Source: an uncultured virus (IMG/VR IMGVR_UViG_3300043119_000141) | Lineage: Duplodnaviria > Heunggongvirae > Uroviricota > Caudoviricetes | Direction: 5' to 3' (one strand) | Virus record (IMG/VR): IMGVR_UViG_3300043119_000141 | DNA: 36,441 nt | Shown: one piece after another, positions 2,486 to 32,856 of the stretch | Position numbering within the stretch: position 1 is the first letter of the stretch | Layout of the letters: the number at the start of each line of letters is the position of its first letter | Program-made: the position numbers and the translations under genes | The notes under the pieces: generated by a model | What the model was told of the DNA's origin: nothing | Seen by the model: the letters and a program-made list of their open reading frames with translations, nothing else | The model's database searches: none

Positions 2486-3001
2486 TTATTCCACAGTGTA
2501 CGCGTTATTCTTGCGCTCGTTCTCCTCCCCCGGAATAACGCGCATATTGCTTGGTGTGTGCAACCCTGAGACGTTCTTACCCCTCAAGGGGATAACATGG
2601 TCTACATGCCAAGGAAACCCCGATTCGCGGGTGCGCATGGCGGCTAGTTGATACAGCGCCTTGATGTGTATGTGGTCAAACTCAGTCAACCAGTTTGGTG
2701 TTCGCTTGTCCTTATCAGCACGGTACTTGGCTGTGTCTGCTGTATGTTTAGCCCTATTTTCCCTCTTATGTTTAGAAAGGATTTGTTTACGTTTGTCTTT
2801 GTTTTCTGATTGCCATGACTTGGCTTTTTCAATATATTCTTCTTTATTTTCTTGGTAGTGATTTTTGGCGTATTCTTTTAACAGCTTTTTATTGGCTTCA
2901 CGCCAAGCTTTAATACGTGCTTTGTTTTTCAAGTCTGATTTTTTAACAGATTCTTTGCGGCGACGAATGCGCTCTTCTTCAGATAGTTTTGGCGGTGCCA
3001 T
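2486..3001 (-). CDS. HNH (homing) endonuclease
   Basis: C-terminal WHVDHVIPLRGKNVSGLHTPSNMRVIPGEENERKNN; basic helical N-terminus; AT-richer than its neighbours. Confidence 0.9.
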   Translation of the reverse strand: MAPPKLSEEERIRRRKESVKKSDLKNKARIKAWREANKKLLKEYAKNHYQENKEEYIEKAKSWQSENKDKRKQILSKHKRENRAKHTADTAKYRADKDKRTPNWLTEFDHIHIKALYQLAAMRTRESGFPWHVDHVIPLRGKNVSGLHTPSNMRVIPGEENERKNNAYTVE

Positions 3002-3173: not shown

Positions 3174-4091
3174 TTACAAGCCGATGGTGCCATACATATT
3201 CCTTGGATCATGCCATCCTGTAGCATAACGCTCAGAGGCTTTATAACGCATGGAATCTGTTTCAAAGTCCCCTTCACTAGAACGCTCGAGTGGGCGACGC
3301 ATCACCAACATCAAGCCATTCTCAGCGTCGGTTTGAACAAACCAAGCCTTGCTTGAAGACAAACGAGTCACCACGTGGGCGCCGTTTGGCAACATGCCAG
3401 TGGACTTGATAGGGTTCAAATCGTTGTCAGCGCCACCGGAACGCAGGACAGACTTCAAGATAACTTCTGCTTGGAATTCCAAGGCAGGAGGTACCACGAG
3501 TTGCTCCGCTTTCAGGCGAATACGCTTACCGTTGTTGTCCACTGCAGAACGGATCTGAATCAACATCTGTTCAACAGAAGTTTGAGACAAAGATGCCGCT
3601 GTAGACAACTGGTTGCTGAAGGTACGACCTTGGGAGATTGGGTGGTCGCTTGCGATCAATGTTTTACCGTCGCCACCGACATAGCCGGCAGTGAACGCAA
3701 AGTTCAACAAGTTAGCACACAAAGTCTCTTTTGTCTCGATCATGGACTGAGCCAAGTGCTTCGAGAAAGTCGAGCCGATACGGATGTGATCGCCGTCTTC
3801 CATCAAGACTTTGGTCATGGCGTATGCCAAACCATAGATCTTGTAGATGAAGCGGGTGATGAACAAAGTACCACCTTGATCATACGAGACGGGTGTACCG
3901 TCAGGCATCTCAGGGGCTGTGTTCATGCCGAACAACATCACTTCTTCGTGATAGTTACGGGGAATGCCGGTGATCTGGGTTACGAAACCCTTCCACTCGT
4001 CATCACGTTGTTGGTATACACCATCAAAGACTTCATTGAGGATAGGTTCGACTACCGCTCTAAAGTCCGTACTGCGCATTGGGGTTGCCAT
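3174..4091 (-). CDS. Major capsid protein (Mu gpT-like, HK97 fold)
   Basis: 305 aa with GGDGKTLIASDHP, LVVPPALEFQA..IL, LSSSKAWF and ERYATGWHDPR motifs; strong AAGGA SD; followed by a terminator. Confidence 0.9.
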   Translation of the reverse strand: MATPMRSTDFRAVVEPILNEVFDGVYQQRDDEWKGFVTQITGIPRNYHEEVMLFGMNTAPEMPDGTPVSYDQGGTLFITRFIYKIYGLAYAMTKVLMEDGDHIRIGSTFSKHLAQSMIETKETLCANLLNFAFTAGYVGGDGKTLIASDHPISQGRTFSNQLSTAASLSQTSVEQMLIQIRSAVDNNGKRIRLKAEQLVVPPALEFQAEVILKSVLRSGGADNDLNPIKSTGMLPNGAHVVTRLSSSKAWFVQTDAENGLMLVMRRPLERSSEGDFETDSMRYKASERYATGWHDPRNMYGTIGL

Positions 4092-4111
4092 GTGCTACTT
4101 CCTTTCTTTAG

Positions 4112-4711
4112 TTATTCTACGTTAGCGGCAACGAACACGTCGTTAGCGAGCTTGACTTGCACAACTGTTGCTGTATCACCCCAAGCATTATTGATTTCAC
4201 GGCCGAGACCTGTGACTTGCATTTGTGCTTGTGTGCCGACAGCTACTGCTGTAGGATCCAACGCGGCAGTTGAGGTGCCCAGACCACCGTTGCCGATGAT
4301 TTGACCAGATGTCACTGCTGTGAAGTTGAATTCTTGGCCGACTTGTGTGTTGGCGATCGAGCCGTTGGCTTGAACTTCATACACAATTTCGGGGTCCATG
4401 AAAATCCACATCACGACGTCGGTGGCTGTACCCAAAGCTGGGCCAAACCATTTGCTGACCGTGCGGCGGCCAGATGCGTCGGTGTATTCAACACCGGCAA
4501 ACACGCCAGCCAAACGCTTGTTTGCTGTGGGTGTGTTGCTTGCTACTACGAGAGTAGATACGCCTGCAGTCGTTGCTTCATCGAGAGAGACAGGGGTACC
4601 GCTGTAGAATACTGCACTGGTGTCATAGGCACCGGTGAAATTCAACGAACGGATAATGCCGCTAGGATGATATACGGGCTTCAGGCCAAAAGGAGCATAA
4701 GTTGCGCTCAT
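4112..4711 (-). CDS. Putative head structural/decoration protein
   Basis: N-terminal APFGLKPV, A/G/T/V-rich, immediately upstream of the major capsid gene. Confidence 0.7.
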   Translation of the reverse strand: MSATYAPFGLKPVYHPSGIIRSLNFTGAYDTSAVFYSGTPVSLDEATTAGVSTLVVASNTPTANKRLAGVFAGVEYTDASGRRTVSKWFGPALGTATDVVMWIFMDPEIVYEVQANGSIANTQVGQEFNFTAVTSGQIIGNGGLGTSTAALDPTAVAVGTQAQMQVTGLGREINNAWGDTATVVQVKLANDVFVAANVE

Positions 4712-4732
4712 TGTTTTGGTTCCTTAAAGTTG

Positions 4733-5290
4733 TTAATTAAACCGCAAATGGTTTGCGGCTCTGTGTGCATCTTTTTCCATCTCCAAGAGGCCACCTTCCA
4801 GAATAGAGCGTCCACCCTTACCACCTTCAGCCTGTGAACGCACCGTCGCAGTAATATTGCGCTGGTGTTCCAAAGGATCATCGTGGTGAAGCATTTTTGC
4901 CACTTCCTGATAAATGTCATCCGGGATCTTGAATAAGATCATCTCATTACAAGATATACAACCTTCAAACTTGCCCGAGCTCATCTTGCCTAAGTGTTCA
5001 AAGCCTTTTCCTAATTCAGCGGCTTTCACTGGCTCATAACCCAACGCGATGCGTTTGTCGATTGAATCATACTGGTTTGTCGTTGACAGCCAGCAGAGGT
5101 GCATACCGGGCAATAACCCACCCGGCACGTCCGGCAGTGCGTTGTTGGACCATTTGTCCCGAAAAGCCTCCAGCCTTTCACGCCTCACTGCTTCATCTGG
5201 CGAAGACACTTCGTTCCTCGCCTTCAGTTCATCAACACGTCCTTGCAGACGGTCGTCTAAATCTCGTGTAATTCGATTGTTAGCCATCAT
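4733..5290 (-). CDS. Phage head-module hypothetical protein
   Basis: 185-aa ORF between scaffold and capsid genes (LP...GMHLCWL...GYEPVKA). Confidence 0.7.
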   Translation of the reverse strand: MMANNRITRDLDDRLQGRVDELKARNEVSSPDEAVRRERLEAFRDKWSNNALPDVPGGLLPGMHLCWLSTTNQYDSIDKRIALGYEPVKAAELGKGFEHLGKMSSGKFEGCISCNEMILFKIPDDIYQEVAKMLHHDDPLEHQRNITATVRSQAEGGKGGRSILEGGLLEMEKDAHRAANHLRFN

Positions 5291-7173: not shown

Positions 7174-9920
7174 TATTGTTCTCCTGTTGGGGTTTGTTGT
7201 TGTTGCATTAACTGCTGTTGTGCTTGCATCGCCGCATCGTGTGCACGTTGCTCTTCTGCTTGCGCTTGATCCAGTCCATGCTTACGCAGGTCTGCGTACG
7301 CTTGGCGCTCTGCCTCCAACGCAGTCATCTCTTGTGAGTGTTGCTGTTGAACCTGTTGCGCGCTCAGTGCTTGGTCTGCCGCGATCATTGCCACGCGCTC
7401 TTTGGAGGCGTTGTTGATGTCCGCAATAGCCACCTTGGCCGCGTTGTCCTGATCGGCCAACTGTTGCTGTAGTCCCAGCTTGGCTTGGATCTCTGCCAGC
7501 TTGGCCTGCATGTCGCGCACCTTGTCCGCCATCTCGGCTTCCATCTTCTCGCGCTCCAGTTGGAACTTGGCCTGCGCCTCTTCTGTCTTGCGCTTTGTCT
7601 CTGCCATCTGAGTCTGGATGAGTGCCTGTGACGTGGGGTCTGCCATCGCCGCGGACTGCATCTGGTTCTGTTTGGACTGTTGCATCTGTTGCACCAACTG
7701 CTGGATGATCGGGTTGATGCCCTCGAACGTCTTGGTTGCGTCCTGATTGACCAACTGGGCCGCCATGGCCAGCGCCTCTTGGGCGGCTTGGTCCAGCTTG
7801 CGCTCTTCGTTCAACTTGAACGCGTCCTCACCACCAGCGGCATGAGACACGTAGTTGCGCATTGACTGCAGGTAGTGCAGTGTCAGGTGTTGCTTGATGT
7901 GCTCCAACATCAAAGGCGTCACGCCGGGGCCAATGAGTGGGTTGCCACCGTACGCTGGGTCCATCATGTAAGCCAAGTGCACCTTCAAGTGGTCGATGTG
8001 GCTCTGGTCTGGGAACGCGGCCGCCGCGTGGCCCATTGTCATCTGAACGTTCTCTAGCGCGGGGTTGCTCTCTGTCGAGCCTTTGGGGTTTGGCATGACC
8101 TTGTCAATGTCAGGCACCTTCATCAGCTTCATCACGCGCATGTGCGCCTCGCGCACGTCGTACATCTGCGGCGCCTTCTCTGCCAACTGCAACACCAACT
8201 GCGCCTGTGTAAGACGCTGTGTTTCGCTGAAGATGTTAGGGTCAGAGATTGGGCTGACGTCTGAGTTGTCCTCAAAGTCTTCTACCGCGATCTCAGCGCC
8301 GGACTGGTTGTCCATGTCTTCCAAGTACCAGCAGTTCAGACGAGACAGAACCTGCAAGCTCTTGGCCTGACTGCGGTGCAGGCGGGCGTGAATGCTGGAG
8401 AACACCTTCGAGCCTTGCTCGATCATGGCCTGTGTTGTGCCAACGGGGGCGTTGCTGTTCATGTCAGCAATACGGCCCTCGCTTGTCTTCACAACACCTT
8501 TAGCGGCGTCAGTGAGCCAGCCTAACAGGTTGTACAGGACAGAGGACGGCGGGTTGAACGGCAGTGGCATTGCCAACTTGCGCACGTCGTCCACACCGGG
8601 CGAACCCTCGATCTCAACGACCTGAGTTGGCTCAATGCGGTCAGACTGTCCACCAATACGACCGCCCTTGAGTTTGAGCATGGTCTGGCTGTTGTTCACG
8701 TGCGCCGCGTCCATCAGGGCGCGCAGTGAACCAGTCAAGGCCGCTGAGAGGCCACCAATAAGGTGTGGCATGCCGATAGCATAAGCACCGCGCCAAGGAA
8801 TAAACTTGTACTCGATCATCCAGTCGAGCTTGCGCATGCGTGTGTCGCCTGACTGCCAGTTACGGTACAGACCAACCACCTTGCCTGTGATCTCGTCCAC
8901 CGTCATGATGTACGGTGCGCGCTTACCTTCTGTCAGTGGGTCGTCTTCCAAACGCAGGAACGTTGTGATCTCGTACACACGGCGCAAACCGTCCACGTTC
9001 TTCGTTGGCTCTTCCTTGCCCTCGATCTTGTTGTTCGCCTTCTCAGACTTGGTCTGGTTGTCGGGGTTCAACTCGGCTGTAAAGATCTCAATGTCACGGT
9101 ACTCACCAGACTCGACACGTTGCTTGAACATGTCCTCTGTGATGTCTTGCTGTTCTGTGATCCGCGCGGCAGAATAAAAATTGGTAGACGCAAACGGCAA
9201 CAGCACGTTGTCAATCGGGATCCACTCGGGCACTGGGCGGTTGAGGTCCTTGTCAAAGCGCCACTTGAGGTACTGTGAGCCGCCAAGGGGAAGCTGTGTG
9301 AACAACTGCTCCATCTCGTCACGGTACTCTTCAATCTGCTCAGTCAACTGCCAGTTCAGGAAGTTGGCTTTACGCTGTGCCGTGTCAATTCTATCTTGGT
9401 TGGCTTTGCCCTTGATGTACGTACGCACCAAGCCGTCAGCAGGCAACAACTCTTTGGACGCGTTAGCCGCAAAGTCAACGCAGGCTTCTGCCATGATGGG
9501 GTGCACCACCTTGCTGGCGCCTTGGAACGTCGCGCCACCGGGGGCGTCGTTGCCCATGCCAGTGCGGCGGATGCCTTCTTCGTACTGCTTGTCACGCTGT
9601 TTGCGAGACTCACGGTCCACTTCAATTAAGTCAAGGTACTCAAACGCAAGTGTGTCCAGCGTGCCGTCGTCCAACTCTTCAGCCAAGTTGGCGTAGAACT
9701 CTGGGTTCTCTGACGGCTTTTCTGTCTCCATCATGTTGACCACAACGGAGCCATCCTCCATCTCAATGATCTCAGACTCTACGTCGTCAATGTCCAGATC
9801 CAGCGCCTCGGCCAGATCTTGGACTTCCTTTTCCGTGTCTACTTCTTTTGTCGTCTCGTCTTCTGCGTAAGACAACGCGGACAGGTTACCGCCCTGCTGG
9901 AGTGGAATGATTGGTTGCAT
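7173..9920 (-). CDS. Portal protein
   Basis: 915 aa, near terL; VHPIMAEACVDF.A, NFLNWQLTE, APVGTTQAMIEQG..VFSSIHARLH motifs; long Q-rich coiled-coil C-terminus. Confidence 0.85.
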   Translation of the reverse strand: MQPIIPLQQGGNLSALSYAEDETTKEVDTEKEVQDLAEALDLDIDDVESEIIEMEDGSVVVNMMETEKPSENPEFYANLAEELDDGTLDTLAFEYLDLIEVDRESRKQRDKQYEEGIRRTGMGNDAPGGATFQGASKVVHPIMAEACVDFAANASKELLPADGLVRTYIKGKANQDRIDTAQRKANFLNWQLTEQIEEYRDEMEQLFTQLPLGGSQYLKWRFDKDLNRPVPEWIPIDNVLLPFASTNFYSAARITEQQDITEDMFKQRVESGEYRDIEIFTAELNPDNQTKSEKANNKIEGKEEPTKNVDGLRRVYEITTFLRLEDDPLTEGKRAPYIMTVDEITGKVVGLYRNWQSGDTRMRKLDWMIEYKFIPWRGAYAIGMPHLIGGLSAALTGSLRALMDAAHVNNSQTMLKLKGGRIGGQSDRIEPTQVVEIEGSPGVDDVRKLAMPLPFNPPSSVLYNLLGWLTDAAKGVVKTSEGRIADMNSNAPVGTTQAMIEQGSKVFSSIHARLHRSQAKSLQVLSRLNCWYLEDMDNQSGAEIAVEDFEDNSDVSPISDPNIFSETQRLTQAQLVLQLAEKAPQMYDVREAHMRVMKLMKVPDIDKVMPNPKGSTESNPALENVQMTMGHAAAAFPDQSHIDHLKVHLAYMMDPAYGGNPLIGPGVTPLMLEHIKQHLTLHYLQSMRNYVSHAAGGEDAFKLNEERKLDQAAQEALAMAAQLVNQDATKTFEGINPIIQQLVQQMQQSKQNQMQSAAMADPTSQALIQTQMAETKRKTEEAQAKFQLEREKMEAEMADKVRDMQAKLAEIQAKLGLQQQLADQDNAAKVAIADINNASKERVAMIAADQALSAQQVQQQHSQEMTALEAERQAYADLRKHGLDQAQAEEQRAHDAAMQAQQQLMQQQQTPTGEQ

Positions 9921-11572
9921 TATTGGTTAAAGCCTTTGTATGCTTTACGGATAGGGCCTACTAACGGTAGTGCACCTAACGAACTCATTGCCGCGTCTCC
10001 GTATTTGCCTTGTCTAAAATTTTGTCCTGCTTCAGCGGCAAACATAGGTGCTTGCATCATGGCAATAGGAGGGCTGGCAAAAGCGGCAACGTCCATTGCG
10101 CCCCAGCCTCCGGGAATGTTGCTTGATGGGCCACCAACGATTGTGTCTGCCGCACGTCGTGCAATAGGGCGACGAATGCCTACTTTTTCAAGCATGTCGC
10201 TACCCAATGAGGAAATACGCTCACGAGGTGTTGGATCATACTTAGACATTTTTGGTTCTTTTCTCGCTTCTGCATTTTCCATGGAACGCATCAGAACTTC
10301 GTCAACCGAGTTTTCGTACCCGGTGCCGCCGCTACGGATGTACGCTGTCAACTCTTCCAGTGTGGGGGTCTGTGTGTATCCGCCGCTGTTGTAGCCGCGG
10401 ACCATCATCTCGGCCTGCATGTCGCGGGGAGAGTGCATCATGCCACCCTCTGCCTTGCCTTGAACGGCACGGCGGCGCTTGTCCATCAGCTCCTCCATCT
10501 CCCAGTCCTTGGCGAACGGTGCACGCTGTGCCGGTTCAGTGTCCAGCAAGTAGTCACGCTGGTTCTTAGGGAACCAATCAGACGGGTGCTTAGTCACCAC
10601 CGACTCAGGCAGACCGGAGGCACGGGCCTCGTCGCGCCACGACTGCATTTCCGCAGAGGGGCGGCCGCCGCCACCGGGTTGTGATGGGCGTTGAGCGATT
10701 GGGTTTGTGCCAGTGTAGTTGTGGCGCATAGGATTGATCATCGCGTTGATCGCGTTGACAATGTCTTCTTGGTCTGGGTCGATGCCGCGGGCACGGAAGT
10801 CCGCAACCACCTTGTCCACCAACGCACCGTGCTTACCCAACAGCATCTCGTCTGTCAGTTTGTCCAGTCCGGGACCTTCTAGTTGCGCGGCACGTTCGGC
10901 AAACGGCGCACTCGCGCTGGTCATCTGCGGAATGTCGCCCTCAGTCGCACGCAGGGCACCAAGGCCACTCATTGCGTCGTCTGTTACGTCCAAGGCCTCT
11001 TCACCCAATTGCTGGCGCGTTGCCAACTCTTCTGTTGAGGGGGTGAATGACTTGTTCCATGTGCGGTTACCAGTGCGGCCTGTGTTGGCCATCGACATAA
11101 ACTCGTCTTCAGGGAACGCATTCTGAAACTGACCCTTGGGGTAGTTGCGCGCCTTCATGTTGACGGGTGACATGTCAAACTGACTTGGTACACCTTGGAA
11201 TGGGCCAATGGTTTCGCGTGTTGTCACACCCTTGGCACGCTCTGGCGTGATTGTTTGGCCTGCGGGGCTTGTTGCCGCAGGGTAAGGACGGCCTGATGCG
11301 TCCACAAACTGGTCTGCAAACGGTGTTTGCTGTTTCATGCGGGCCATTGTCTCGGCCGGCTTGGCTGAAGGGGCCGACAAAGACCGAATGTGGTCTTCCA
11401 GTGCCTTGACCTCTTCTGGTGACGGGGGTTTACCCACCGCCTTCGTGTATTTACGAATCGCGTCTTGGATTCGGCTTGCAAACTGACCAACAACGTCGCC
11501 ACCCTTACCGTAATGCGGCAGGTTAGCCTGTTCGTACATCATCTGTGTGGGGGTTTTGATTGGATTGATCAT
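9920..11572 (-). CDS. Hypothetical 550-aa protein (possibly an internal/ejected virion protein)
   Basis: Between terL and portal; has its own late promoter; recurring (Y/K)xxGG motifs and a G/A-rich C-terminus. Confidence 0.65.
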   Translation of the reverse strand: MINPIKTPTQMMYEQANLPHYGKGGDVVGQFASRIQDAIRKYTKAVGKPPSPEEVKALEDHIRSLSAPSAKPAETMARMKQQTPFADQFVDASGRPYPAATSPAGQTITPERAKGVTTRETIGPFQGVPSQFDMSPVNMKARNYPKGQFQNAFPEDEFMSMANTGRTGNRTWNKSFTPSTEELATRQQLGEEALDVTDDAMSGLGALRATEGDIPQMTSASAPFAERAAQLEGPGLDKLTDEMLLGKHGALVDKVVADFRARGIDPDQEDIVNAINAMINPMRHNYTGTNPIAQRPSQPGGGGRPSAEMQSWRDEARASGLPESVVTKHPSDWFPKNQRDYLLDTEPAQRAPFAKDWEMEELMDKRRRAVQGKAEGGMMHSPRDMQAEMMVRGYNSGGYTQTPTLEELTAYIRSGGTGYENSVDEVLMRSMENAEARKEPKMSKYDPTPRERISSLGSDMLEKVGIRRPIARRAADTIVGGPSSNIPGGWGAMDVAAFASPPIAMMQAPMFAAEAGQNFRQGKYGDAAMSSLGALPLVGPIRKAYKGFNQ

Positions 11573-11596
11573 GTTTTTGAAATTATTGGGACCTTC

Positions 11597-11633
11597 TATA
11601 ACGAATCACCCACAAATGAGGGTGTTTACGCCC
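11597..11633 (-). promoter_or_regulatory. Putative phage late promoter
   Basis: GGGCG-N16-TGGGTGATT-CGT-TATA. Confidence 0.75.
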
Positions 11634-11638
11634 GAAAA

Positions 11639-13084
11639 TTACGCGGCGTAGGGGTTGTATGCCCTGTTTCGCGCAATATCGTCTGAATATTCATAATTTC
11701 TCGGCGGCAGTGGGTCCAACTGGAGCCATCCTGCGTCGCGCAAGACCCTCAAGGCCTGTGACAGTGCGTCAACGTAGTCGTCGTGCCCCTTTGCTTCCGG
11801 AAAAGAACACACCTGCCTGATGAAACGTTTGGCCCACGGGGCTATCTCGCCCGGATTTTCAGGGTCCTCGGGGATAAACACCTTGCCCTTGGCAATTAGC
11901 GGGGCCACAATGTTCATCCTCTGCACCTTGTCCGCTTTTCCGGGGTTGTATGACCGCACCGGCAGGTGTCCAGCCTGCAATTCTTGAATGAGTGAGATAC
12001 CTGCCGACTTATCTTCCATCAAAATCAGGTCCGTTTTCTTGCCCTTTGCGAACGTGTTGTCCGATCCATACACCACTTCCTTAAAATCGTCCTTGATCTT
12101 GCGCCGTAACTCCGGATACGACAGGTGCTCGTCCCATGCGTCCAGCAAAATGCAACACGTGCCGTGGTCCTCCCTGTCGAACACACCGAGCGCAACACAC
12201 GCTGTCGGGTCGTTGTGTGTCTTTTCGCTGGTGGCTGGGTCGTATGACACCAGCACGTACTCCAAGGTCGGGGTTGGCATGTGAGCTGGCCAGTTCTTGA
12301 ACCACTTGCGCTTGACAATACCCGCGTTCTCAGGGTCCAAGATCTCGCCATAGATCTCCTGCTTGCCTAAGTCCGTGCCCTCATATGCTTCCAATTGCTT
12401 AAAAAACGTACTTGAGAGGTTCGCCCTGTTGTCATAACTCGACGCGCGCGACACGTACACGTCGCCGCCGACCTTGCCCTCGTTCAGGTCCGTGATCAGC
12501 TCCAACGGTTTGGGCGTGGTGGTGATGATCGACTGCACCCGGGCTATGCGCGGGTCTGTCAGTCGCAACGTGAACTGTATCTGGTCGTACGCGTCGTCAA
12601 TGTACTCGAACGCGCACAGCTCGTCCGCCCACATGCCGTGCCACTGCGTACCCCGGAAGCGCTCTGGCTCAGACGCCGGGATGCCGCGGATCATGCTTCC
12701 ATTCTTCAGCGTCAACTCAAACAGCGACTTGTTGTAGTCCTTGATCAGTGACGTGGGGATGATGTTCAGTAGCCCCGAGTCACCCTCAAAGCACGTCGCC
12801 CTGATGTCGTTTGATGTTGGCGCTGTCACCAACCAGCGCGTCTTGTCGTAGATCGCCGCCCTCAGTCCTAGCCAGTTGGACGCTGTGTGCGTCTTGCCCG
12901 AGCCCCGGCCGGCTAGGAGCAAGAACGTGTCGTACTCCCCATCCTCTGGCTCCCTTTGGTGTGGTAGGGCCGTTAGCTCCCACCTCACCCGCCACAGGGC
13001 CAGATCCAGTTGCTCCTTGGGCCAGCCCTTGTTCTGTTCGGCAAAAGCCTTGAGCAGTTTTTGTTGCGCGTCGTTCATAGGCAT
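11639..13084 (-). CDS. terL: Terminase large subunit
   Basis: Walker A AGRGSGKT, Walker B WADE, coupling motif TTTP, nuclease motifs YDPA and HDDYVDALSQAL. Confidence 0.95.
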   Translation of the reverse strand: MPMNDAQQKLLKAFAEQNKGWPKEQLDLALWRVRWELTALPHQREPEDGEYDTFLLLAGRGSGKTHTASNWLGLRAAIYDKTRWLVTAPTSNDIRATCFEGDSGLLNIIPTSLIKDYNKSLFELTLKNGSMIRGIPASEPERFRGTQWHGMWADELCAFEYIDDAYDQIQFTLRLTDPRIARVQSIITTTPKPLELITDLNEGKVGGDVYVSRASSYDNRANLSSTFFKQLEAYEGTDLGKQEIYGEILDPENAGIVKRKWFKNWPAHMPTPTLEYVLVSYDPATSEKTHNDPTACVALGVFDREDHGTCCILLDAWDEHLSYPELRRKIKDDFKEVVYGSDNTFAKGKKTDLILMEDKSAGISLIQELQAGHLPVRSYNPGKADKVQRMNIVAPLIAKGKVFIPEDPENPGEIAPWAKRFIRQVCSFPEAKGHDDYVDALSQALRVLRDAGWLQLDPLPPRNYEYSDDIARNRAYNPYAA

Positions 13085-13947
13085 ACTGTCAGGTATCCTT
13101 CACTCACTAGGAATGTGTTGTTGGGGTCTTCGGTCTTGATGTGCACACAGGGCCGAATATCCACGTTGGTAACGTGGGTAATCCTGCGCATCTCCTCGTA
13201 CTGAGGCCGGCGCACAGGCTTTTGGTTTTCGACCAGCATCAGGTTCGTCCTGAATACCATGTGGAACTGGTGGTGGTGCTGTACGATCTCTGTCCTGATT
13301 CCCAAGCTTTCCGTCAAATTGTGAATTGACCTGAAAAGCCGGAAACTCTTAACGTTGAACCTGAACTTGGCCGAGACTTGGCTGTGGCACTTTGGCCTTG
13401 AGGCACATACCCCCCGGAGTATGGCCAAACGCTGTTCAAACGACGAGAACAGGTACTCTTCTGGAATGTGGTCTGGTATTTTGCCGTAACTCTCGATCAG
13501 CTTGGATGTGATGAGGGTGCGCTTGTCCCTGTGCGGGTCACCTATCCACATCCCTAAGTCGTAGGGGTGAATAGGTAGCGGCTTGGCTGTTGGCTTGATT
13601 GGGTAGCACGTTGGCATCCTACACCACCCAGTCTCAATGTTGGATAGGTTCTGTGGCGCGTAGATAGGCAGGATGTACTCTTCGCGGTTTGGGCGCTTAC
13701 GTCCCCACTTGGCTAGTGTGAAGAAAATATCCTTGTCGTACACAGGAATGCCGGTGCGGCTATCCACTACCAACGTCAAGCCGTCCTTGGTCCAGATCTT
13801 ATGACACACCACCGGCGTGTACTCCTGAACAGAAACAACTTTGACTGGCAGGCCCGTGTAATCAAAAACCTCATCCCCCGGGCTGATAAACCGTGCTAAC
13901 TGCCATCCGGCAGTGGTAGGGATGGGAGTTCGTGCATCGATTCCCAT
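13075..13947 (-). CDS. Free-standing intein-derived Hint/LAGLIDADG-like protein, splicing residues lost
   Basis: Block A-like GIDARTPIPTTAGW...GDEVF; block C PYDLGMWIGD; block E IPEEYLFSSFEQRLAILRG; block H LTESLGI; blocks F/G CVHIKTEDPNNTFLVSEGYLTV. No C1 nucleophile, no terminal HN, no exteins. Confidence 0.8.
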   Translation of the reverse strand: MGIDARTPIPTTAGWQLARFISPGDEVFDYTGLPVKVVSVQEYTPVVCHKIWTKDGLTLVVDSRTGIPVYDKDIFFTLAKWGRKRPNREEYILPIYAPQNLSNIETGWCRMPTCYPIKPTAKPLPIHPYDLGMWIGDPHRDKRTLITSKLIESYGKIPDHIPEEYLFSSFEQRLAILRGVCASRPKCHSQVSAKFRFNVKSFRLFRSIHNLTESLGIRTEIVQHHHQFHMVFRTNLMLVENQKPVRRPQYEEMRRITHVTNVDIRPCVHIKTEDPNNTFLVSEGYLTVCL

Positions 13948-13950
13948 GTC

Positions 13951-13987
13951 TAACCCTAATTACCCACGAGAACGGGGTCTGGCGCCC
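13951..13987 (-). promoter_or_regulatory. Putative phage late promoter of the packaging operon (near-leaderless transcript)
   Basis: GGGCG-N16-TGGGTAATT-AGG-GTTA, then GAC and the ATG at 13947; no SD. Confidence 0.7.
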
Positions 13988-14027
13988 CTGTTCCAGTGGT
14001 GGGGGGTATATTGGCCTAAAAGGCCAC

Positions 14028-14156
<129 letters not shown>

Positions 14157-14230
14157 CTAAACTAAAGTACTCATTTTTAAATTGTAATTTTGACGGCGCG
14201 ACACAGAAACCCTACTAGCAACAGGGTCTA

Positions 14231-14248
14231 TATACCCCCGGGGGTATA
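14231..14248. repeat. 18-bp perfect palindrome
   Basis: TATACCCCCGGGGGTATA. Confidence 0.9.
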
Positions 14249-14410
14249 CGTAGAAAAAAAAAGATCGTTTTTGTACATAAAAATAAACAAATATGCGTTT
14301 TTGTACAAATATATGTGAATTTGTGAAAAAACTTGCTTGCTCATGGGGCCCCCCGCCCGGCTAGTCCGATGGGACCCTAATTGGGGTGTCGCTAAAAAAC
14401 AACGCCCCCT

Positions 14411-14625
14411 AGCAAGTACCGTGCCAGCTTGGACAGCATACCCATACTGGTAGGGGTACCCTGCATACCCTACTGGGTATAGTACTCACTCGGCGCGATA
14501 CCCTACCCAGTACAGTATGCCGGCCAGTCTGGCACGGATCTTGCATGGCTAGCAAGTATCATGCCAACGTGGCATGGCACGCATCTTGCTAGTGAGGCAC
14601 GCAGGCCAAGCAAGCTTCATGCCAA
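14411..14625. promoter_or_regulatory. Array of five sigma54 (RpoN) -24/-12 sites in alternating orientation
   Basis: TGGCAYG-N4-TTGC-type sites with exact GG-N10-GC spacing at 14411-27(-), 14529-45(+), 14551-67(-), 14574-90(+) and 14609-25(-). Confidence 0.85.
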
Positions 14626-14697
14626 CGTGGCCGGCGCAATCATCATACCATAGCACCAATGCGCACGCGAGCCCAATGTGGTGGTCTAGCGTCTTAC

Positions 14698-14741
14698 TCT
14701 AGTTGGCCAACTAGATGTTGTTGAACTACTAGTTCGTCAAC
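14698..14741. repeat. Tandem palindromes upstream of the first early gene
   Basis: Perfect TCTAGTTGGCCAACTAGA (14698-14715) plus an imperfect inverted repeat at 14717-14741. Confidence 0.8.
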
Positions 14742-14805
14742 TGGTGATTGTTAACCACCCCGAGTTGACCATAGTAGTATCACCAACCAAACAGGAGAAC
14801 AGACC

Positions 14806-15057
14806 ATGACAGACTACAAAGCAGTGATTGCATCCATTCAATACAGCATCCATTGTGATGCTGACTGGGTCTACCGGATCCGCGACGAAGAGGGCATTGT
14901 GTGGTTTTCCTCTGACTATGAAATGGACGCAGTGTCCGAGTACTACGACAAGTACATCACCCAAGAGCAGGCCGAAGCACTCAAGCTTGAGGCCGACATT
15001 TGGAACGACGAGCAATACGAGCAAGCGGCCAACCGCCTACTGTCTTACACAGCATGA
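14806..15057 (+). CDS. Early acidic hypothetical protein
   Basis: Follows repeat copy 1 and an AGGAG SD. Confidence 0.8.
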   Translation: MTDYKAVIASIQYSIHCDADWVYRIRDEEGIVWFSSDYEMDAVSEYYDKYITQEQAEALKLEADIWNDEQYEQAANRLLSYTA

Positions 15058-15097
15058 TTGATGCGTGATGCCCTGCGTGCAGGGCATTGCAGATCAA
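15058..15097 (+). repeat. Conserved intergenic hairpin (further copies at 15463-15506, 15812-15852, 16505-16542)
   Basis: TTGAT-GC-GTGATGCCCTG-CGTG-CAGGGCATTGC-AG-ATCAA; compensatory C-G to G-C swap in the 15463 copy. Confidence 0.9.
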
Positions 15098-15146
15098 CCA
15101 CCCCGAGTTGACCATAGTAGTATCACCAACCAAACAGGAGCACACC

Positions 15147-15464
15147 ATGCAAACACTTACAGAAGCACGTCACACAATGGACACTGAGAACGTGTTCACA
15201 ATCAACCTGCCACGTACCCGCGGCATCTACAGCGAGGCAAGCTTGTACAAAGACTACAAGACCAACGGCGACGGCATTTACTGGGCCCTGCAACACTCAG
15301 CCTGCCTCAAAGGCCACTACAGCGAGGCAGACATTGCCCATCGTGATCGTTTGAACAACATGAAGCCACTAGAGAACGGCGACATTGTGCTGATCAATGG
15401 TGAACAGTACAAGACACGCATTCTTGGCAATTTCAGCGACTGCGCCATTTTCGACAAGCTTTAA
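15147..15464 (+). CDS. Early hypothetical protein
   Basis: Start reassigned to the ATG after the repeat SD; the ORF-track start lies inside the repeat. Confidence 0.8.
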   Translation: MQTLTEARHTMDTENVFTINLPRTRGIYSEASLYKDYKTNGDGIYWALQHSACLKGHYSEADIAHRDRLNNMKPLENGDIVLINGEQYKTRILGNFSDCAIFDKL

Positions 15465-15553
15465 TTGATGCGTGATGGCCTGCGTGCAGGCCATTGCAGA
15501 TCAATTCACCCCGAGTTGACCATAGTAGTATCAGCAACCAAAAGGAGCATTCC

Positions 15554-15811
15554 ATGATCACACTTTTCAAGACAATCTACAAGCCTGCCACTGACACAGA
15601 GGCCTGCTACTTTTTAGTCCAACGCATGGACGACGGTAGCAAGCCCAAGCGCTACTCATACGAGTACAGCGCAAAGAATGCCGCACGTGCCGCGGCATTC
15701 CTGTACTCTTCAGACACATCACCCGACTGGATGCCAAACGACGAGGACGGCCTCGAGTATGTAGGCGCAGAGGCCGACGGCCTGACCTGCTACTACGCAG
15801 TGAGCAAATGA
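15554..15811 (+). CDS. Early hypothetical protein
   Basis: ATG after the repeat SD. Confidence 0.8.
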   Translation: MITLFKTIYKPATDTEACYFLVQRMDDGSKPKRYSYEYSAKNAARAAAFLYSSDTSPDWMPNDEDGLEYVGAEADGLTCYYAVSK

Positions 15812-15900
15812 TTGATGCGTGATGCCCTGCGGGTCAGGGCATTGCAGATCAACCACCCCGAGTTGACCATAGTAGTATCACCAACCAACAGGAGCAAACC

Positions 15901-16113
15901 ATGGACAAACTGTACGCATTCCAACGTCGCATGCACTCAATGTGCCACTATTACCCACGCGAGTATGGTGTCAGCATTAACTGGAACCCTGAGACCCGCA
16001 AGTGGGAAAGCTTGACGTTCAAAATGGACAGCAATCACAAGGCCGAATTAGAGGCCTTGTTGCAGGGCACCGATGGCCGCATCACCCGCATCGACGGTTT
16101 TTTCACAGACTAA
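15901..16113 (+). CDS. Early hypothetical protein
   Basis: ATG after the repeat SD. Confidence 0.8.
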   Translation: MDKLYAFQRRMHSMCHYYPREYGVSINWNPETRKWESLTFKMDSNHKAELEALLQGTDGRITRIDGFFTD

Positions 16114-22110: not shown

Positions 22111-22502
22111 CCAAAGACGAAGCGTTGAAACTGACAGAGATACTAAACCACGCGATATGGGACAGCGTGCAGGTTGTCATACAGCCGGAACCGCAACAGC
22201 CTAAGTGCAACCCCCACCCCAAGGCACCACACGGGCTTGTGAGGGGCGCAAGCTACAGTGCCGCGCGCTACGTGTGCGAGTGCGAAATGTGGGACCCCTA
22301 CGAGGCCGGCAGGGAGGCAGGCGTGCAGGCCATGTTGGACTACGACATGCCCACACCCGAGCCTGTGCCGTACACACCACTCTCAACCAGTGAGATTGTC
22401 GAATGTGCTGTGAAGGTGTGGAGGTTTGATGCCAACGACGTGAGTGCGAACACAATCAAATTTGCGCGTGATATTGAGCGCTTAACCTTGGAACGACAAT
22501 GA
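22107..22502 (+). CDS. Hypothetical protein
   Basis: ATGA overlaps; CNPHPKAPHG...YVCEC. Confidence 0.7.
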   Translation: MTKDEALKLTEILNHAIWDSVQVVIQPEPQQPKCNPHPKAPHGLVRGASYSAARYVCECEMWDPYEAGREAGVQAMLDYDMPTPEPVPYTPLSTSEIVECAVKVWRFDANDVSANTIKFARDIERLTLERQ

Positions 22503-23023
22503 GACGCCAACTACTGACAGCCGAACAAGAGATTGAACTACACCACCGGATTGTGCAGGGTGACGAGGAGGCCCACGAGGCCTTGGTGGAGGCCAACATG
22601 GGACTGGTGGTGTACATTGTGCAGAAGTTGCCGCAGTGGGACATGGCGGGCAACATGACAAGGGACGACCTACTGCAAGAAGGTTACATGGCCCTGATGA
22701 AGGCGGCGCACAGGTGGAAGCCGCAGGGAAGGTTTGCAAGCTACGCGCGCACACTGATCAAGAGCCAAGTGCTCAGAGCCATTGAGAACAAGGGCCTGAT
22801 GATCCACGTGCCCGTGGCGGTGCAGGAGGACCTGCGCAAGATCAAGCGGGTGGAGACGGAGTTGGCCCAAGTGTTGGGCAGGGACCCGACCACCAAAGAG
22901 GTGGCCAAGATCACAGGCCTGACAGAAAGCAGGGTCCGTGATAGACTGGTGGTGAGCCAGAGACAACCGGTCTCATTGGACGCGTTCAAGAAGGACCAAG
23001 TAACGGAAGAAGAATATGATTGA
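22499..23023 (+). CDS. Sigma70-family sigma factor, regions 1.2-3 only (no region 4)
   Basis: LLTAEQEIEL (1.2), LVEANMGLVV (2.1), DLLQEGYMALMKA (2.2), RFASYA (2.3), LGRDPTTKEVA (3), PVSLD, then a stop 12 codons later. Confidence 0.9.
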   Translation: MRRQLLTAEQEIELHHRIVQGDEEAHEALVEANMGLVVYIVQKLPQWDMAGNMTRDDLLQEGYMALMKAAHRWKPQGRFASYARTLIKSQVLRAIENKGLMIHVPVAVQEDLRKIKRVETELAQVLGRDPTTKEVAKITGLTESRVRDRLVVSQRQPVSLDAFKKDQVTEEEYD

Positions 23024-29079: not shown

Positions 29080-29089
29080 CAGCTTATGA
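28817..29089 (+). CDS. VRR-NUC domain nuclease
   Basis: EKKIEQRLVKKVKEKGGLCLKWVSP...GVPDR...VELK..KGKLSARQ; TTG 9 nt after GGAGG. Confidence 0.88.
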   Translation: MQDEKKIEQRLVKKVKEKGGLCLKWVSPSTTGVPDRLVFHNSKVIPVELKDPKGKLSARQELMIKELQARGVQTHVLSSEQQVDEFVNSL

Positions 29090-29568
29090 CCGACGACGAA
29101 GTTCATGAAGCCAAAAAGCGCAACCACATTGCTAAAACAATGTATAACGTTAAACGGCGCGCCCTTGCCGCAGGGATTCCATTTGAGTTGGATCACAACT
29201 ACCTGTGTGCAATCGCGCCTGAATACTGCCCAGTGTTTAAGACCAAGATCCTTTGGGGGTTTGGACACTCAGGCACTGTGGGGGTTAGCGGCCCAGACTC
29301 ACCAAGCTTGGACCGAATTATTCCAGAAAAAGGATACGTGAAAGGCAACGTAGCATGGTTAAGCAACAAAGCAAACATGATCAAGTCCAACGCAACACAA
29401 GAGGAGCTATACAAGGTTGCGGACTGGACACACGAAAAAATAAAGGAGGTAAATAATGGAGGTGCACGACCGCCCCCACTTGGCGACCCTGCAAATACCT
29501 ATGTCACTCGCCCCACGCGCTATCGCATTATTAACGACGTTACAGCAAGGGAAAGAGCAGGCTACTGA
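29086..29568 (+). CDS. HNH-like (beta-beta-alpha-Me) endonuclease
   Basis: CPVF...SPSLDRIIPEKGYVKGNV..LSNKANMIK. Confidence 0.8.
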   Translation: MTDDEVHEAKKRNHIAKTMYNVKRRALAAGIPFELDHNYLCAIAPEYCPVFKTKILWGFGHSGTVGVSGPDSPSLDRIIPEKGYVKGNVAWLSNKANMIKSNATQEELYKVADWTHEKIKEVNNGGARPPPLGDPANTYVTRPTRYRIINDVTARERAGY

Positions 29569-31316: not shown

Positions 31317-31796
31317 ATGAAAACCTGCACTAAGTGCGGCGTCACAAAACCATTATTTGAATTTTACAAAACAAGACCAACACAATGTAAGAAATGTTGT
31401 AAATTTCAAAGAATAAAAAATTCAGCACAAAAAAGCGAATACGATCGGAAAAGATATGCTGAAAAAGCAGATCAAATTAAACAATATCAAAAAAAATATA
31501 AAGCTGAAAATCCAGATAGGAAAAAACAAACACAAAATAAAACTCATTTAAAAATGAGATACGGGTTGACTCCACATGACAAACAAAAAATGTTGGACGA
31601 ACAAAACAACTGTTGCGCAATTTGTGGTGTAGAGTTTGTTGATGCAAAAGCTACGCATGTTGATCATAATCATGATACAAACAAAGTAAGAGGAATTCTT
31701 TGTAGAAGTTGTAATATAGGTTTAGGACATTTTAAAGATTCAACGGAGTTTCTTTTAGAAGCTATCGAATATTTAAAAAAATACGAAAGGAGTTAA
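31317..31796 (+). CDS. Endonuclease VII-like HNH endonuclease
   Basis: CAICG...THVDHNHDTNKVRGILCRSCNIGLGHFKD; N-terminal CxxC motifs; markedly AT-rich. Confidence 0.9.
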   Translation: MKTCTKCGVTKPLFEFYKTRPTQCKKCCKFQRIKNSAQKSEYDRKRYAEKADQIKQYQKKYKAENPDRKKQTQNKTHLKMRYGLTPHDKQKMLDEQNNCCAICGVEFVDAKATHVDHNHDTNKVRGILCRSCNIGLGHFKDSTEFLLEAIEYLKKYERS

Positions 31797-32466: not shown

Positions 32467-32856
32467 ATGGCAACCAAATCCAAATACGAGTTCAAACCGG
32501 AGATGTGCGACCAACTGATAGAGTTGGGCAAGGTAGGCGCGTCCCAAAAAATGATGTTTGCAAGCATCGGAATCAGTTCCGGAGCCGCGCAGACATTTAA
32601 GAAAAACCACCCAGAGTTTGCGGAAGCACTGGACATGGCCATCACCCATAGCCAAAGCTTCTGGGAGACACAACTATTAGCCAACGTAGAAAACAAGGCA
32701 TTTAATAGCAGGGTGGCCGAAATAGCGTTAAGGGGACAATTTCCAGACACATACCGCGAAGACCGAAACAGCAAGGTTGAGGTCAAGGCGGACGTCGTGT
32801 TGGATTTTTCTGGTGCAGTTACCGACCTAATTACGGCGCTCAAAAAAGCGGCGTAA
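32467..32856 (+). CDS. Probable terminase small subunit
   Basis: KYEFKPEMCDQLIELGKVGAS...HPEFAEAL..A....QSFWE: HTH, helical hairpin and beta tail typical of TerS; under a late promoter motif. Confidence 0.7.
   Translation: MATKSKYEFKPEMCDQLIELGKVGASQKMMFASIGISSGAAQTFKKNHPEFAEALDMAITHSQSFWETQLLANVENKAFNSRVAEIALRGQFPDTYREDRNSKVEVKADVVLDFSGAVTDLITALKKAA

Follow-up and report, generated by a model that had tools for sequence, protein, structure and literature searches.

Inteins are regarded as selfish elements. What, then, does a complete intein do as a gene of its own, directly in front of the large terminase gene of a tailed phage? The question was raised by an open reading frame (ORF) in the uncultured Caudoviricetes record IMGVR_UViG_3300043119_000141, the whole stretch of which, 36,441 nucleotides (nt), is called the window here. 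The ORF list places this intein-derived ORF on the minus strand at 13947..13075, with 290 amino acids (aa) and a stop. It is composed of one Met and a complete class-3-type intein body. Downstream on the same strand lies terL (13084..11639), encoding a complete and intein-free large terminase (TerL) of 481 aa, which was recognized by PHROGs and by Pfam (Terminase_6N, expectation value (E) 1e-14; Terminase_6C, E 7e-10). The relatives used for comparison were uncultured contigs throughout. The initial annotation had described the ORF as a domesticated intein, a splicing-dead Hint-LAGLIDADG protein in the usual place of the small terminase gene (terS). Domestication of an intein is strongly supported, since the gene is free-standing, has lost the residues for splicing and for nuclease activity, lies next to terL in each of the 73 informative loci and is under purifying selection. 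The probability is about evenly balanced that the gene is an exapted class 3 intein of the kind inserted in the P-loop of phage large terminases, which now stands free upstream of an intein-free terL as an accessory of packaging.

Intein fold and replaced catalytic residues

The AlphaFold2 model of the intein-derived protein, built from a 27-sequence alignment, showed a predicted local distance difference test score (pLDDT) of 91.8 and a predicted template modelling score (pTM) of 0.88. Foldseek search against the Protein Data Bank (PDB) gave 34 matches at E<=0.001. At the head of the list were PI-SceI and archaeal VMA inteins (E 8e-13 to 1e-9, template modelling score TMq 0.66-0.69), and the class 3 DnaB mini-inteins 6bs8, 6rix and 6riy covered the Hint part (TMt 0.80-0.85). 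The model and these matches to inteins confirmed the intein architecture proposed in the initial annotation, with a Hint fold and an apparent LAGLIDADG-type fold. By phmmer, residues 6-64 were aligned to two of the class 3 DnaB mini-inteins, 6rix (E 7e-4) and 6bs8. Pfam and NCBIfam scans of the protein gave 0 matches. In PHROGs, two families named 'terminase large subunit' matched residues 1-144 (E 5e-11 and 5e-10), apparently through the intein segment of TerLs that carry one.

Comparison with cultured phages by tblastn gave 221 records, all below 60% identity (~25% over the full length), and 52 of them cover at least 80% of the query. Among the matches listed, most are in terminase large subunit genes and some carry DnaB helicase, exonuclease or other annotations. 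Terminase_6N or 6C exteins were found in 5 of the 16 best long relatives scanned, and many of the inteins cut from long relatives are preceded by GK. A metagenomic TerL, P0119, possesses a real intein which starts GK|GLDINT and ends THN|S, comparable at its start with M-GIDART of the window protein. Gly at intein residue 1 is thus found in true relatives also.

To place the boundaries of the ORF, it was aligned with four true TerL inteins, from Synechococcus phage B23, Escherichia phage AV108, Clavibacter phage CN1A and Gordonia phage Zipp. All four are inserted between the Walker-A Lys and the following Thr/Ser and carry the class 3 hallmarks. In this alignment Met1 of the window protein occupies position -1, which is the Walker-A Lys in the true inteins, Gly2 corresponds to intein residue 1 (Ala, Asp or Leu in the true inteins, and Ala in the wider family of the window protein), and L290 corresponds to the terminal Asn. 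As the two ends of the ORF match position -1 and the terminal Asn, no room is left for exteins, as had been claimed; the ORF is exactly one Met plus an intein body. The translation begins MGIDARTPIPT and ends EGYLTVCL before the stop, in agreement with the M-G-I-D start and YLTVCL end reported earlier. All 27 close-family and 34 wider-family aligned members start at that Met or at Val. The aligned family members begin with M-(G/A)-(I/L/F/V/T) and end within one residue of the intein C-terminus.

The WCT triplet of class 3 inteins is formed by Trp in block B, Cys at position 4 of block F and Thr at position 5 of block G, according to Tori et al. 2010 (PMC2807308). In the window protein, Trp12 of block B is replaced by Ile, Cys at block F position 4 by His and Thr5 of block G by Val; His10 of block B is replaced by Thr. 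The Thr5-His6-Asn7 of block G in the true inteins reads Val-Cys-Leu and is followed by the stop. The C-terminal His-Asn with Ser, Thr or Cys at +1 is likewise missing, and family members end with C, S, W or similar, then L, H, R or nothing. When 8 family members were aligned with the four true TerL inteins, the splicing residues, the Lys at -1 and the Asp/Asp/Asp set were all gone, except the acid of the first LAGLIDADG motif in 3 of the 8. Each splicing residue tested is replaced in the window protein, which presumably no longer splices.

The protein can be divided in four parts. The Hint N-terminal part (residues 1-68, 13744..13947, minus strand) contains blocks A and B with the replaced His10 and Trp12, and includes the stretch aligned by phmmer. 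A basic linker (residues 69-127, 13567..13743, minus strand; isoelectric point (pI) 9.3) runs from block B to the first LAGLIDADG helix and holds the sole low-confidence stretch of the model, residues 81-90 with pLDDT 57. It is followed by a reduced LAGLIDADG-type domain with two LAGLIDADG-like helices (residues 128-245, 13213..13566, minus strand; pI 9.7). The Hint C-terminal part (residues 246-290, 13078..13212, minus strand) contains blocks F and G with Cys4, Thr5, His6 and Asn7 replaced.

Both LAGLIDADG helices are predicted, at residues 128-136 and 170-182. In the AlphaFold2 model the second half of the domain has strands and the first half has helices only. A segment of 35-45 residues, present in the first half in a ~330-aa subfamily and in true inteins, is absent from the 290-aa subfamily to which the window protein belongs, and the Foldseek match to I-DmoI is weak (E 0.03). 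In the second LAGLIDADG motif, LRGVCASR, an Arg has taken the place of the catalytic Asp, so the earlier statement that this motif lacks its acid stands. Asp or Glu at this position was found in 0 of 27 close-family members (A1) and 1 of 34 wider-family members (A3), and at the first motif in 20 of 27 and 2 of 34, respectively. Metal-dependent cleavage requires an acid at the end of each motif, and the protein does not possess this pair. Most probably it no longer cuts DNA.

The 3' end of the ORF overlaps terL by 10 nt (13075..13084, minus strand), where its last codons and stop run into the terL start codon; the overlap noted in the initial annotation follows directly from the coordinates of the two ORFs. 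In the terL ATG, the A is at the same time the last base of the Val codon, and the TG opens the Cys codon, which is thereby fixed as TGN. A GAAGGA within the Glu283-Gly284 codons lies upstream of the terL start. Because of these two overlapping signals the last residues of the protein carry little information. A Cys is conserved at position 6 of block G. Its reading as a new functional residue was rejected, because the terL ATG forces its TGN codon. A frameshift-fused Hint-TerL product was also rejected, as a stop interrupts the terL frame 6 codons ahead of its ATG and no slippery heptamer was seen in the last 18 nt.

Linkage to terL and selection in the family

A word-indexed search found 78 proteins at E<=0.001. 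Most are of 288-296 aa and show 41-91% identity over 99-100% coverage; two relatives of 329 aa show 29% identity. An exhaustive search of representatives found 2937 proteins at E<=0.001, among which 6 reached E<=1e-30, all of 170-326 aa. About 30 further clusters at 50% identity, of 311-337 aa, are free-standing as well. Longer relatives of 400-1839 aa match as inteins only, with ~25-40% identity. No in-frame TerL-fused close relative was present among the 6 representatives at E<=1e-30. The closest homologs are hence not inteins inside TerL, a case which the initial annotation had named as fatal to its proposal. The member A0A6J7WN65 of the viral library BFVD (44% identity, TM 0.92) is labelled 'DOD-type homing endonuclease domain-containing protein'. 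A megablast of window positions 11000-16000 against cultured phages gave no match. A bacterial and archaeal genome collection gave 31 pattern matches and no relative, and therefore neither a prophage copy nor a clue to the host.

The linkage to terL was analyzed from both genes. In viral contigs found with the family, terL lies directly downstream in 77 of 78 loci, and the remaining locus is a 213-nt fragment. In viral contigs found with terL, the homolog lies directly upstream in 73 of 80; the other 7 have at most 252 nt of upstream DNA, so that all 73 informative contigs carry it. Many contigs are common to both sets, which are for that reason not independent samples. The distance from stop to start in the terL-seeded loci, with gene starts extrapolated from tblastn, is -10 in 63 of 73; an insert of 333-337 nt is present in 9, and the genes abut in 1. 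The intein-derived gene does not show the sporadic, mobile distribution expected of a homing endonuclease, which had been named as a second fatal case.

Among the cultured phages, TerL is closest to that of an uncultured siphovirus (52% identity) and of Caulobacter phages (~40-42%). Upstream of their terL an ordinary terS is annotated, and an intein-like gene is absent at this place. In Caulobacter phage RLK, a cultured distant relative, a 223-aa copy of the TerL N-terminus (L080:2445-3113) is followed by a methyltransferase gene and then by the full terL (3773-5248). The copy looks like a partial terL duplication.

The intein-derived protein diverges in step with TerL. It shows 84-100% identity where TerL shows 91-100%, 39-50% at 86-88%, and 26-30% at 75-78%, and the two distances co-vary with a Spearman coefficient of 0.85 over 1653 pairs. 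The ratio of nonsynonymous to synonymous divergence (dN/dS) was calculated as Nei-Gojobori medians from 58 loci with both genes complete, the pairs being of related sequences and so not independent. For synonymous divergence (dS) of 0.02-0.2, 0.2-0.5 and 0.5-1.0, the ratio is 0.04, 0.12 and 0.13 in the intein-derived gene and 0.03, 0.04 and 0.05 in terL. By part, among 28 close relatives, it is 0.04 in Hint-N, 0.22 in the linker, 0.10 in the LAGLIDADG-like domain and 0.09 in Hint-C. The Hint N-terminal part is the most constrained region of the protein. Purifying selection (0.04-0.13 at dS below 1, and below 0.25 in each domain) excludes the neutral evolution which the initial annotation had set against its own proposal. 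Its view of the frame as intact also held, since the large family, the terL linkage and these ratios fit neither a relic nor a sequencing error.

In codons 11-70 (13738-13917) the synonymous differences among the 28 close relatives are 0.10-0.14, compared with 0.2-0.3 in the rest of the gene and in terL; codons 141-160 of terL show a value as low. An embedded cis element or a recombination tract may account for the low synonymous divergence in codons 11-70.

In a FastTree phylogeny, 59 free-standing proteins were separated on one branch from 106 intein regions cut from long relatives, with Shimodaira-Hasegawa-like (SH-like) support of 100. The nearest sampled intein lies at least 2.09 changes per column from the stem of the family, and no specific sister was resolved. 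This pattern fits a single origin of the free-standing family, as far as sequences can tell.

The same data bear on whether the gene could still be a selfish, WHO-like homing gene which targets terL, or a relic retained for the terL ribosome-binding site and start in its 3' end. A free-standing intein-like gene beside the gene invaded by its relatives resembles WHO beside FBA1, as described in PMC7282813. The first-motif Asp/Glu kept in 20 of 27 close-family members agrees with such an origin, and so do the last codons constrained by the overlap. Against this, the gene is present in 73 of 73 informative loci and is not sporadic; dN/dS of 0.04-0.22 holds in all domains and not in the 3' end alone; and the length of 288-296 aa is kept down to 41% identity. 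The acid of the second motif remains in 0 of 27 and 1 of 34 members, that of the first motif has gone in 32 of 34 of the wider family, and the distances track those of TerL. Such a selfish gene or relic is highly improbable.

Possible roles beside the large terminase

A course of events can be proposed as follows. An ancestral class 3 intein of the TerL P-loop type would have come to stand as a gene of its own, immediately ahead of a terL without intein. It has lost its splicing residues and LAGLIDADG cleavage acids, has become fixed in a clade of uncultured tailed phages of ~60 kb and has been maintained by purifying selection; in most loci its stop codon falls within the start region of terL. 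Translation of TerL would be coupled to that of the intein-derived protein, so that both are made together; the 10-nt overlap and the stop found in the terL frame 6 codons ahead of the ATG favour such coupling. The protein would then be a basic, nucleic-acid- or TerL-binding packaging accessory, choosing, holding or processing DNA for TerL beside a small terminase of Sf6 type encoded elsewhere. The family is basic throughout, with pI 8.9-10.1, a net charge of at least +6 in the members listed and medians of +14 and +16, and its positive charge sits in the linker and LAGLIDADG-like domain. Exaptation of a complete intein as a non-catalytic third component of the DNA-packaging machine, made in step with TerL, is considered possible, with the probabilities leaning against it. 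If true, no domesticated intein would have preceded it other than yeast HO, and a former parasite of the terminase gene would have turned into part of the terminase system.

Several points weigh against this role in packaging. Adjacency to terL is circumstantial evidence. No likeness to known packaging proteins was found in sequence or fold (Pfam, PHROGs, NCBIfam and Foldseek against PDB). The protein diverges fast, to 26-30% identity where TerL keeps 75-78%. The conservation of its last residues is at least partly imposed by the overlapping terL start. From the model, the 290-aa subfamily appears to have lost the beta strands of the first LAGLIDADG half, by which the usual DNA-binding saddle would be halved. 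Finally, a T run in the upstream spacer, a candidate packaging site, reaches 15 nt or more in no more than 23 of the 54 loci whose upstream DNA is long enough (17 of 17, 5 of 13 and 1 of 24 by identity tier). The T-run element is consequently not an obligatory partner of the protein. Binding of the protein to this region, suggested in the initial annotation, found no support.

The position of the gene suggests another role, that of the small terminase (TerS) itself, with TerS replaced by the intein-derived protein as the DNA-recognition subunit which recruits TerL. The ORF lies in the classical place of terS directly upstream of terL, with the stop/start overlap of 10 nt seen in 63 of 73 loci, and it is here that the nearest cultured TerL relatives have their ordinary terS. 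No PHROG terS family was found at E<=1e-5 in 80 of the 91 listed ORFs of the complete relative G002. On the other side, a probable Sf6-type small terminase is encoded elsewhere in the window. This ORF of 129 aa, with a helix-turn-helix and long helices, is located at 32467-32856 on the plus strand in the replication block, ~19 kb from terL and on the opposite strand. It matches phrog_309 'terminase small subunit' (E 2.7e-7), and its protein-atlas neighbours are Sf6_terminase and GP3_package with scores of 0.95-0.96. Its six best Foldseek PDB matches are all Sf6 gp1, with weak E of 0.11-0.55 for a model of pLDDT 73.5. It is kept in 4 of 4 near-complete relatives, and its homolog in G002 is outside the 80 ORFs scanned. 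Pfam, NCBIfam and a profile search against PDB sequences gave no name for it. When the TerS proteins of the nearest cultured relatives were compared with the window, no homolog was found at E below 0.1. The intein-derived protein is unlike any TerS fold, and Pfam, NCBIfam, PHROGs and Foldseek against PDB found no known TerS sequence or fold in it. The separate Sf6-type TerS argues against a simple replacement, which is quite unlikely. The phrase 'usual terS position' in the initial annotation was thus right as to place, with the qualification that a separate terS-like gene exists. The intein-derived protein is probably an extra TerL-coupled factor and not the sole small terminase.

A nuclease-dead LAGLIDADG scaffold could also bind DNA or RNA in the manner of WhiA or of an intron maturase, and control the expression of terL or of the late genes. 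Precedents for dead LAGLIDADG proteins as regulators are known. The gene is the first of the leftward structural block, beside an 850-nt spacer of regulatory appearance, and its product is basic with dead active sites. The protein possesses, however, no helix-turn-helix or other added domain and stops at the last residue of the intein. The phage encodes its own sigma factor, and so strict a stop/start coupling to terL is seen more typically with subunits that are produced in a set ratio. A regulator of this kind is unlikely.

The insertion site of the related inteins raises the further idea of a guard against homing, in which the dead endonuclease still binds the terL P-loop codons, as its ancestral homing site, or the terL junction and shields the intein-free terL from elements of co-infecting phages. 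The P-loop codons G59-T65, GRGSGKT (Walker A), are located at 12890..12910 on the minus strand, and in other TerLs the nearest true inteins interrupt this motif between GK and T/S. Two unrelated endonuclease genes moreover invade the adjoining junction in some relatives. An insert separates the intein-derived gene from terL in 10 of 77 loci. At L004:6864-7220 this insert is an endonuclease VII gene of 118 aa (PF02945, E 2e-24), which starts MPMN like terL and ends ACL-stop like the intein-derived gene, so that the junction is duplicated. At L077:969-1355 the insert is a different ORF of 128 aa, HNH-looking by eye. These junction genes are sporadic, as homing endonuclease genes should be, and the intein-derived gene is not. 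Their entry in 10 of 77 loci speaks against a shield, as does the P-loop protein sequence, which is invariant in the TerL alignment, whereas the domain supposed to bind DNA changes rapidly and has been deleted in part. A guard function is very unlikely.

Comparison with known systems sets the packaging accessory in context. Class 3 P-loop inteins of TerL and helicases share the fold, are alignable over the full length, carry the LAGLIDADG domain inserted at the same place and may have Gly or Ala, not a nucleophile, at residue 1; the nearest relatives are in TerLs of the same Pfam type. The window protein differs from them by the missing exteins and the replaced Trp B12, Cys F4, Thr G5, His B10, His G6 and Asn G7. 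Its family differs by the lost nuclease acids, by being fixed and not sporadic, and by the stem of at least 2.09 changes per column. PI-SceI, the VMA1 intein and best solved structural match (TMq 0.67-0.69), has the same two-domain Hint and LAGLIDADG organization. It is of ~450 aa and both splices and cuts, unlike the 290-aa window protein, which shows 10-12% identity to it and lacks the residues for both activities.

Yeast HO is the textbook case of a domesticated intein and, to our knowledge, the only well-known one, with its nuclease retained. HO is tied to mating-type switching, unlike the window gene, which is viral and tied to a packaging gene. Like the window gene, HO and WHO are free-standing intein-derived Hint and LAGLIDADG genes independent of splicing, in the account given in PMC7282813. 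WHO genes lie beside the gene they target (FBA1), and HO and WHO are active endonucleases fused to zinc fingers, according to the same work (Coughlan et al. 2020). The window protein possesses neither the catalytic acids nor an added domain. It shares with WhiA a LAGLIDADG scaffold without catalytic acids, presumably likewise reused for binding. WhiA is composed of two full LAGLIDADG halves and a helix-turn-helix domain and has no Hint domain, and the window protein differs in keeping the Hint domain as its most constrained part and in its reduced LAGLIDADG domain.

HNH endonucleases of the HK97 gp74 type are also proteins of homing-endonuclease families encoded beside terminase genes. Those located by cos sites and terminase genes are used by the phage itself in packaging, according to PMC3592412. 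They have a different fold and keep a catalytic HNH motif which stimulates cutting. As the nuclease site is gone, any role of the intein-derived protein must be non-catalytic. Searches of the main text of published papers yielded no extein-less, free-standing dead intein beside a terminase gene. The non-canonical inteins described in a 2025 actinophage survey (bioRxiv 10.1101/2025.01.02.630785) are all inside host genes.

The present case would be a domestication of a homing element in which a whole intein was taken over in a phage with all catalysis lost, a natural reuse of the Hint-LAGLIDADG scaffold for a non-catalytic job. It supplies a candidate, open to testing, for an accessory of phage DNA packaging that has so far gone unrecognised. 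It also calls for caution in annotation, given the homing endonuclease label on the BFVD member. If specific binding of DNA or TerL is true, the compact 290-aa scaffold could interest protein engineers.

Neighbouring DNA and other genes of the window

The initial annotation had placed the ORF as the first gene after a late promoter. It is indeed the first ORF of the leftward block; no late-promoter consensus was identified. The 850-nt spacer upstream of it is free of ORFs on the minus strand, and past this spacer a rightward block carries early and replication genes. Words like TATATACCCC occur 6 times but not ahead of other late genes, and a scan for sigma-70-type promoters gave 3 sites compared with 2.1 +/- 1.5 expected by chance. 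A shared late-promoter motif was accordingly rejected.

The spacer contains, ~135 nt upstream of the intein-derived ORF, a T-run and inverted-repeat element at 14028..14156 (strand unassigned). A T run of 37 nt (minus strand, 14081-14117) is flanked by inverted arms of 53 nt which are 87% complementary and composed of tandem GGGTTTGCA-like units. The layout is present in 9 of 9 aligned close relatives, where the arms differ from those of the window yet stay complementary to each other. Many contigs of relatives end 120-700 nt upstream of the intein-derived gene, and these ends could be assembly breaks at the homopolymer or real ends. The element may be an origin, a packaging site or an end, or may do no more than break assemblies. 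A perfect palindrome, ATACCCCCGGGGGTAT, is located at 14232-14248.

Genes typical of tailed phages in the window encode a portal, a major head protein, a tail fibre, a primase-helicase, an exonuclease, a Gp2.5-like single-stranded DNA-binding protein, a ribonucleotide reductase and a sigma factor. The near-complete relatives are of 59-68 kb, and the complete G002 is of 62,278 bp. The sigma-70-family factor (22499-23023, plus strand) possesses regions 2 and 3 and a weak region 4, and may serve the transcription of middle or late genes, the terL block among them. An ORF of 550 aa (9920-11572, minus strand), situated between terL and the portal gene, has no Pfam or PHROG family and an NCBIfam match at chance level (E 0.1); the ORF at the same place in G002 is of 923 aa. 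Three more endonuclease VII or HNH-like genes are present at 2486-3001 (minus strand), 29086-29568 (plus strand) and 31317-31796 (plus strand), and the phage lineage is rich in free-standing endonuclease genes.

In the early region, CCCGAGTTGACCATAGT occurs in seven exact copies between 14759 and 18183 on the plus strand, compared with 0.06 expected, each within a longer repeated leader before small early genes. These repeats are likely early promoters. They also give rise to look-alike spurious ORF starts (MQINHPELTIVV...).

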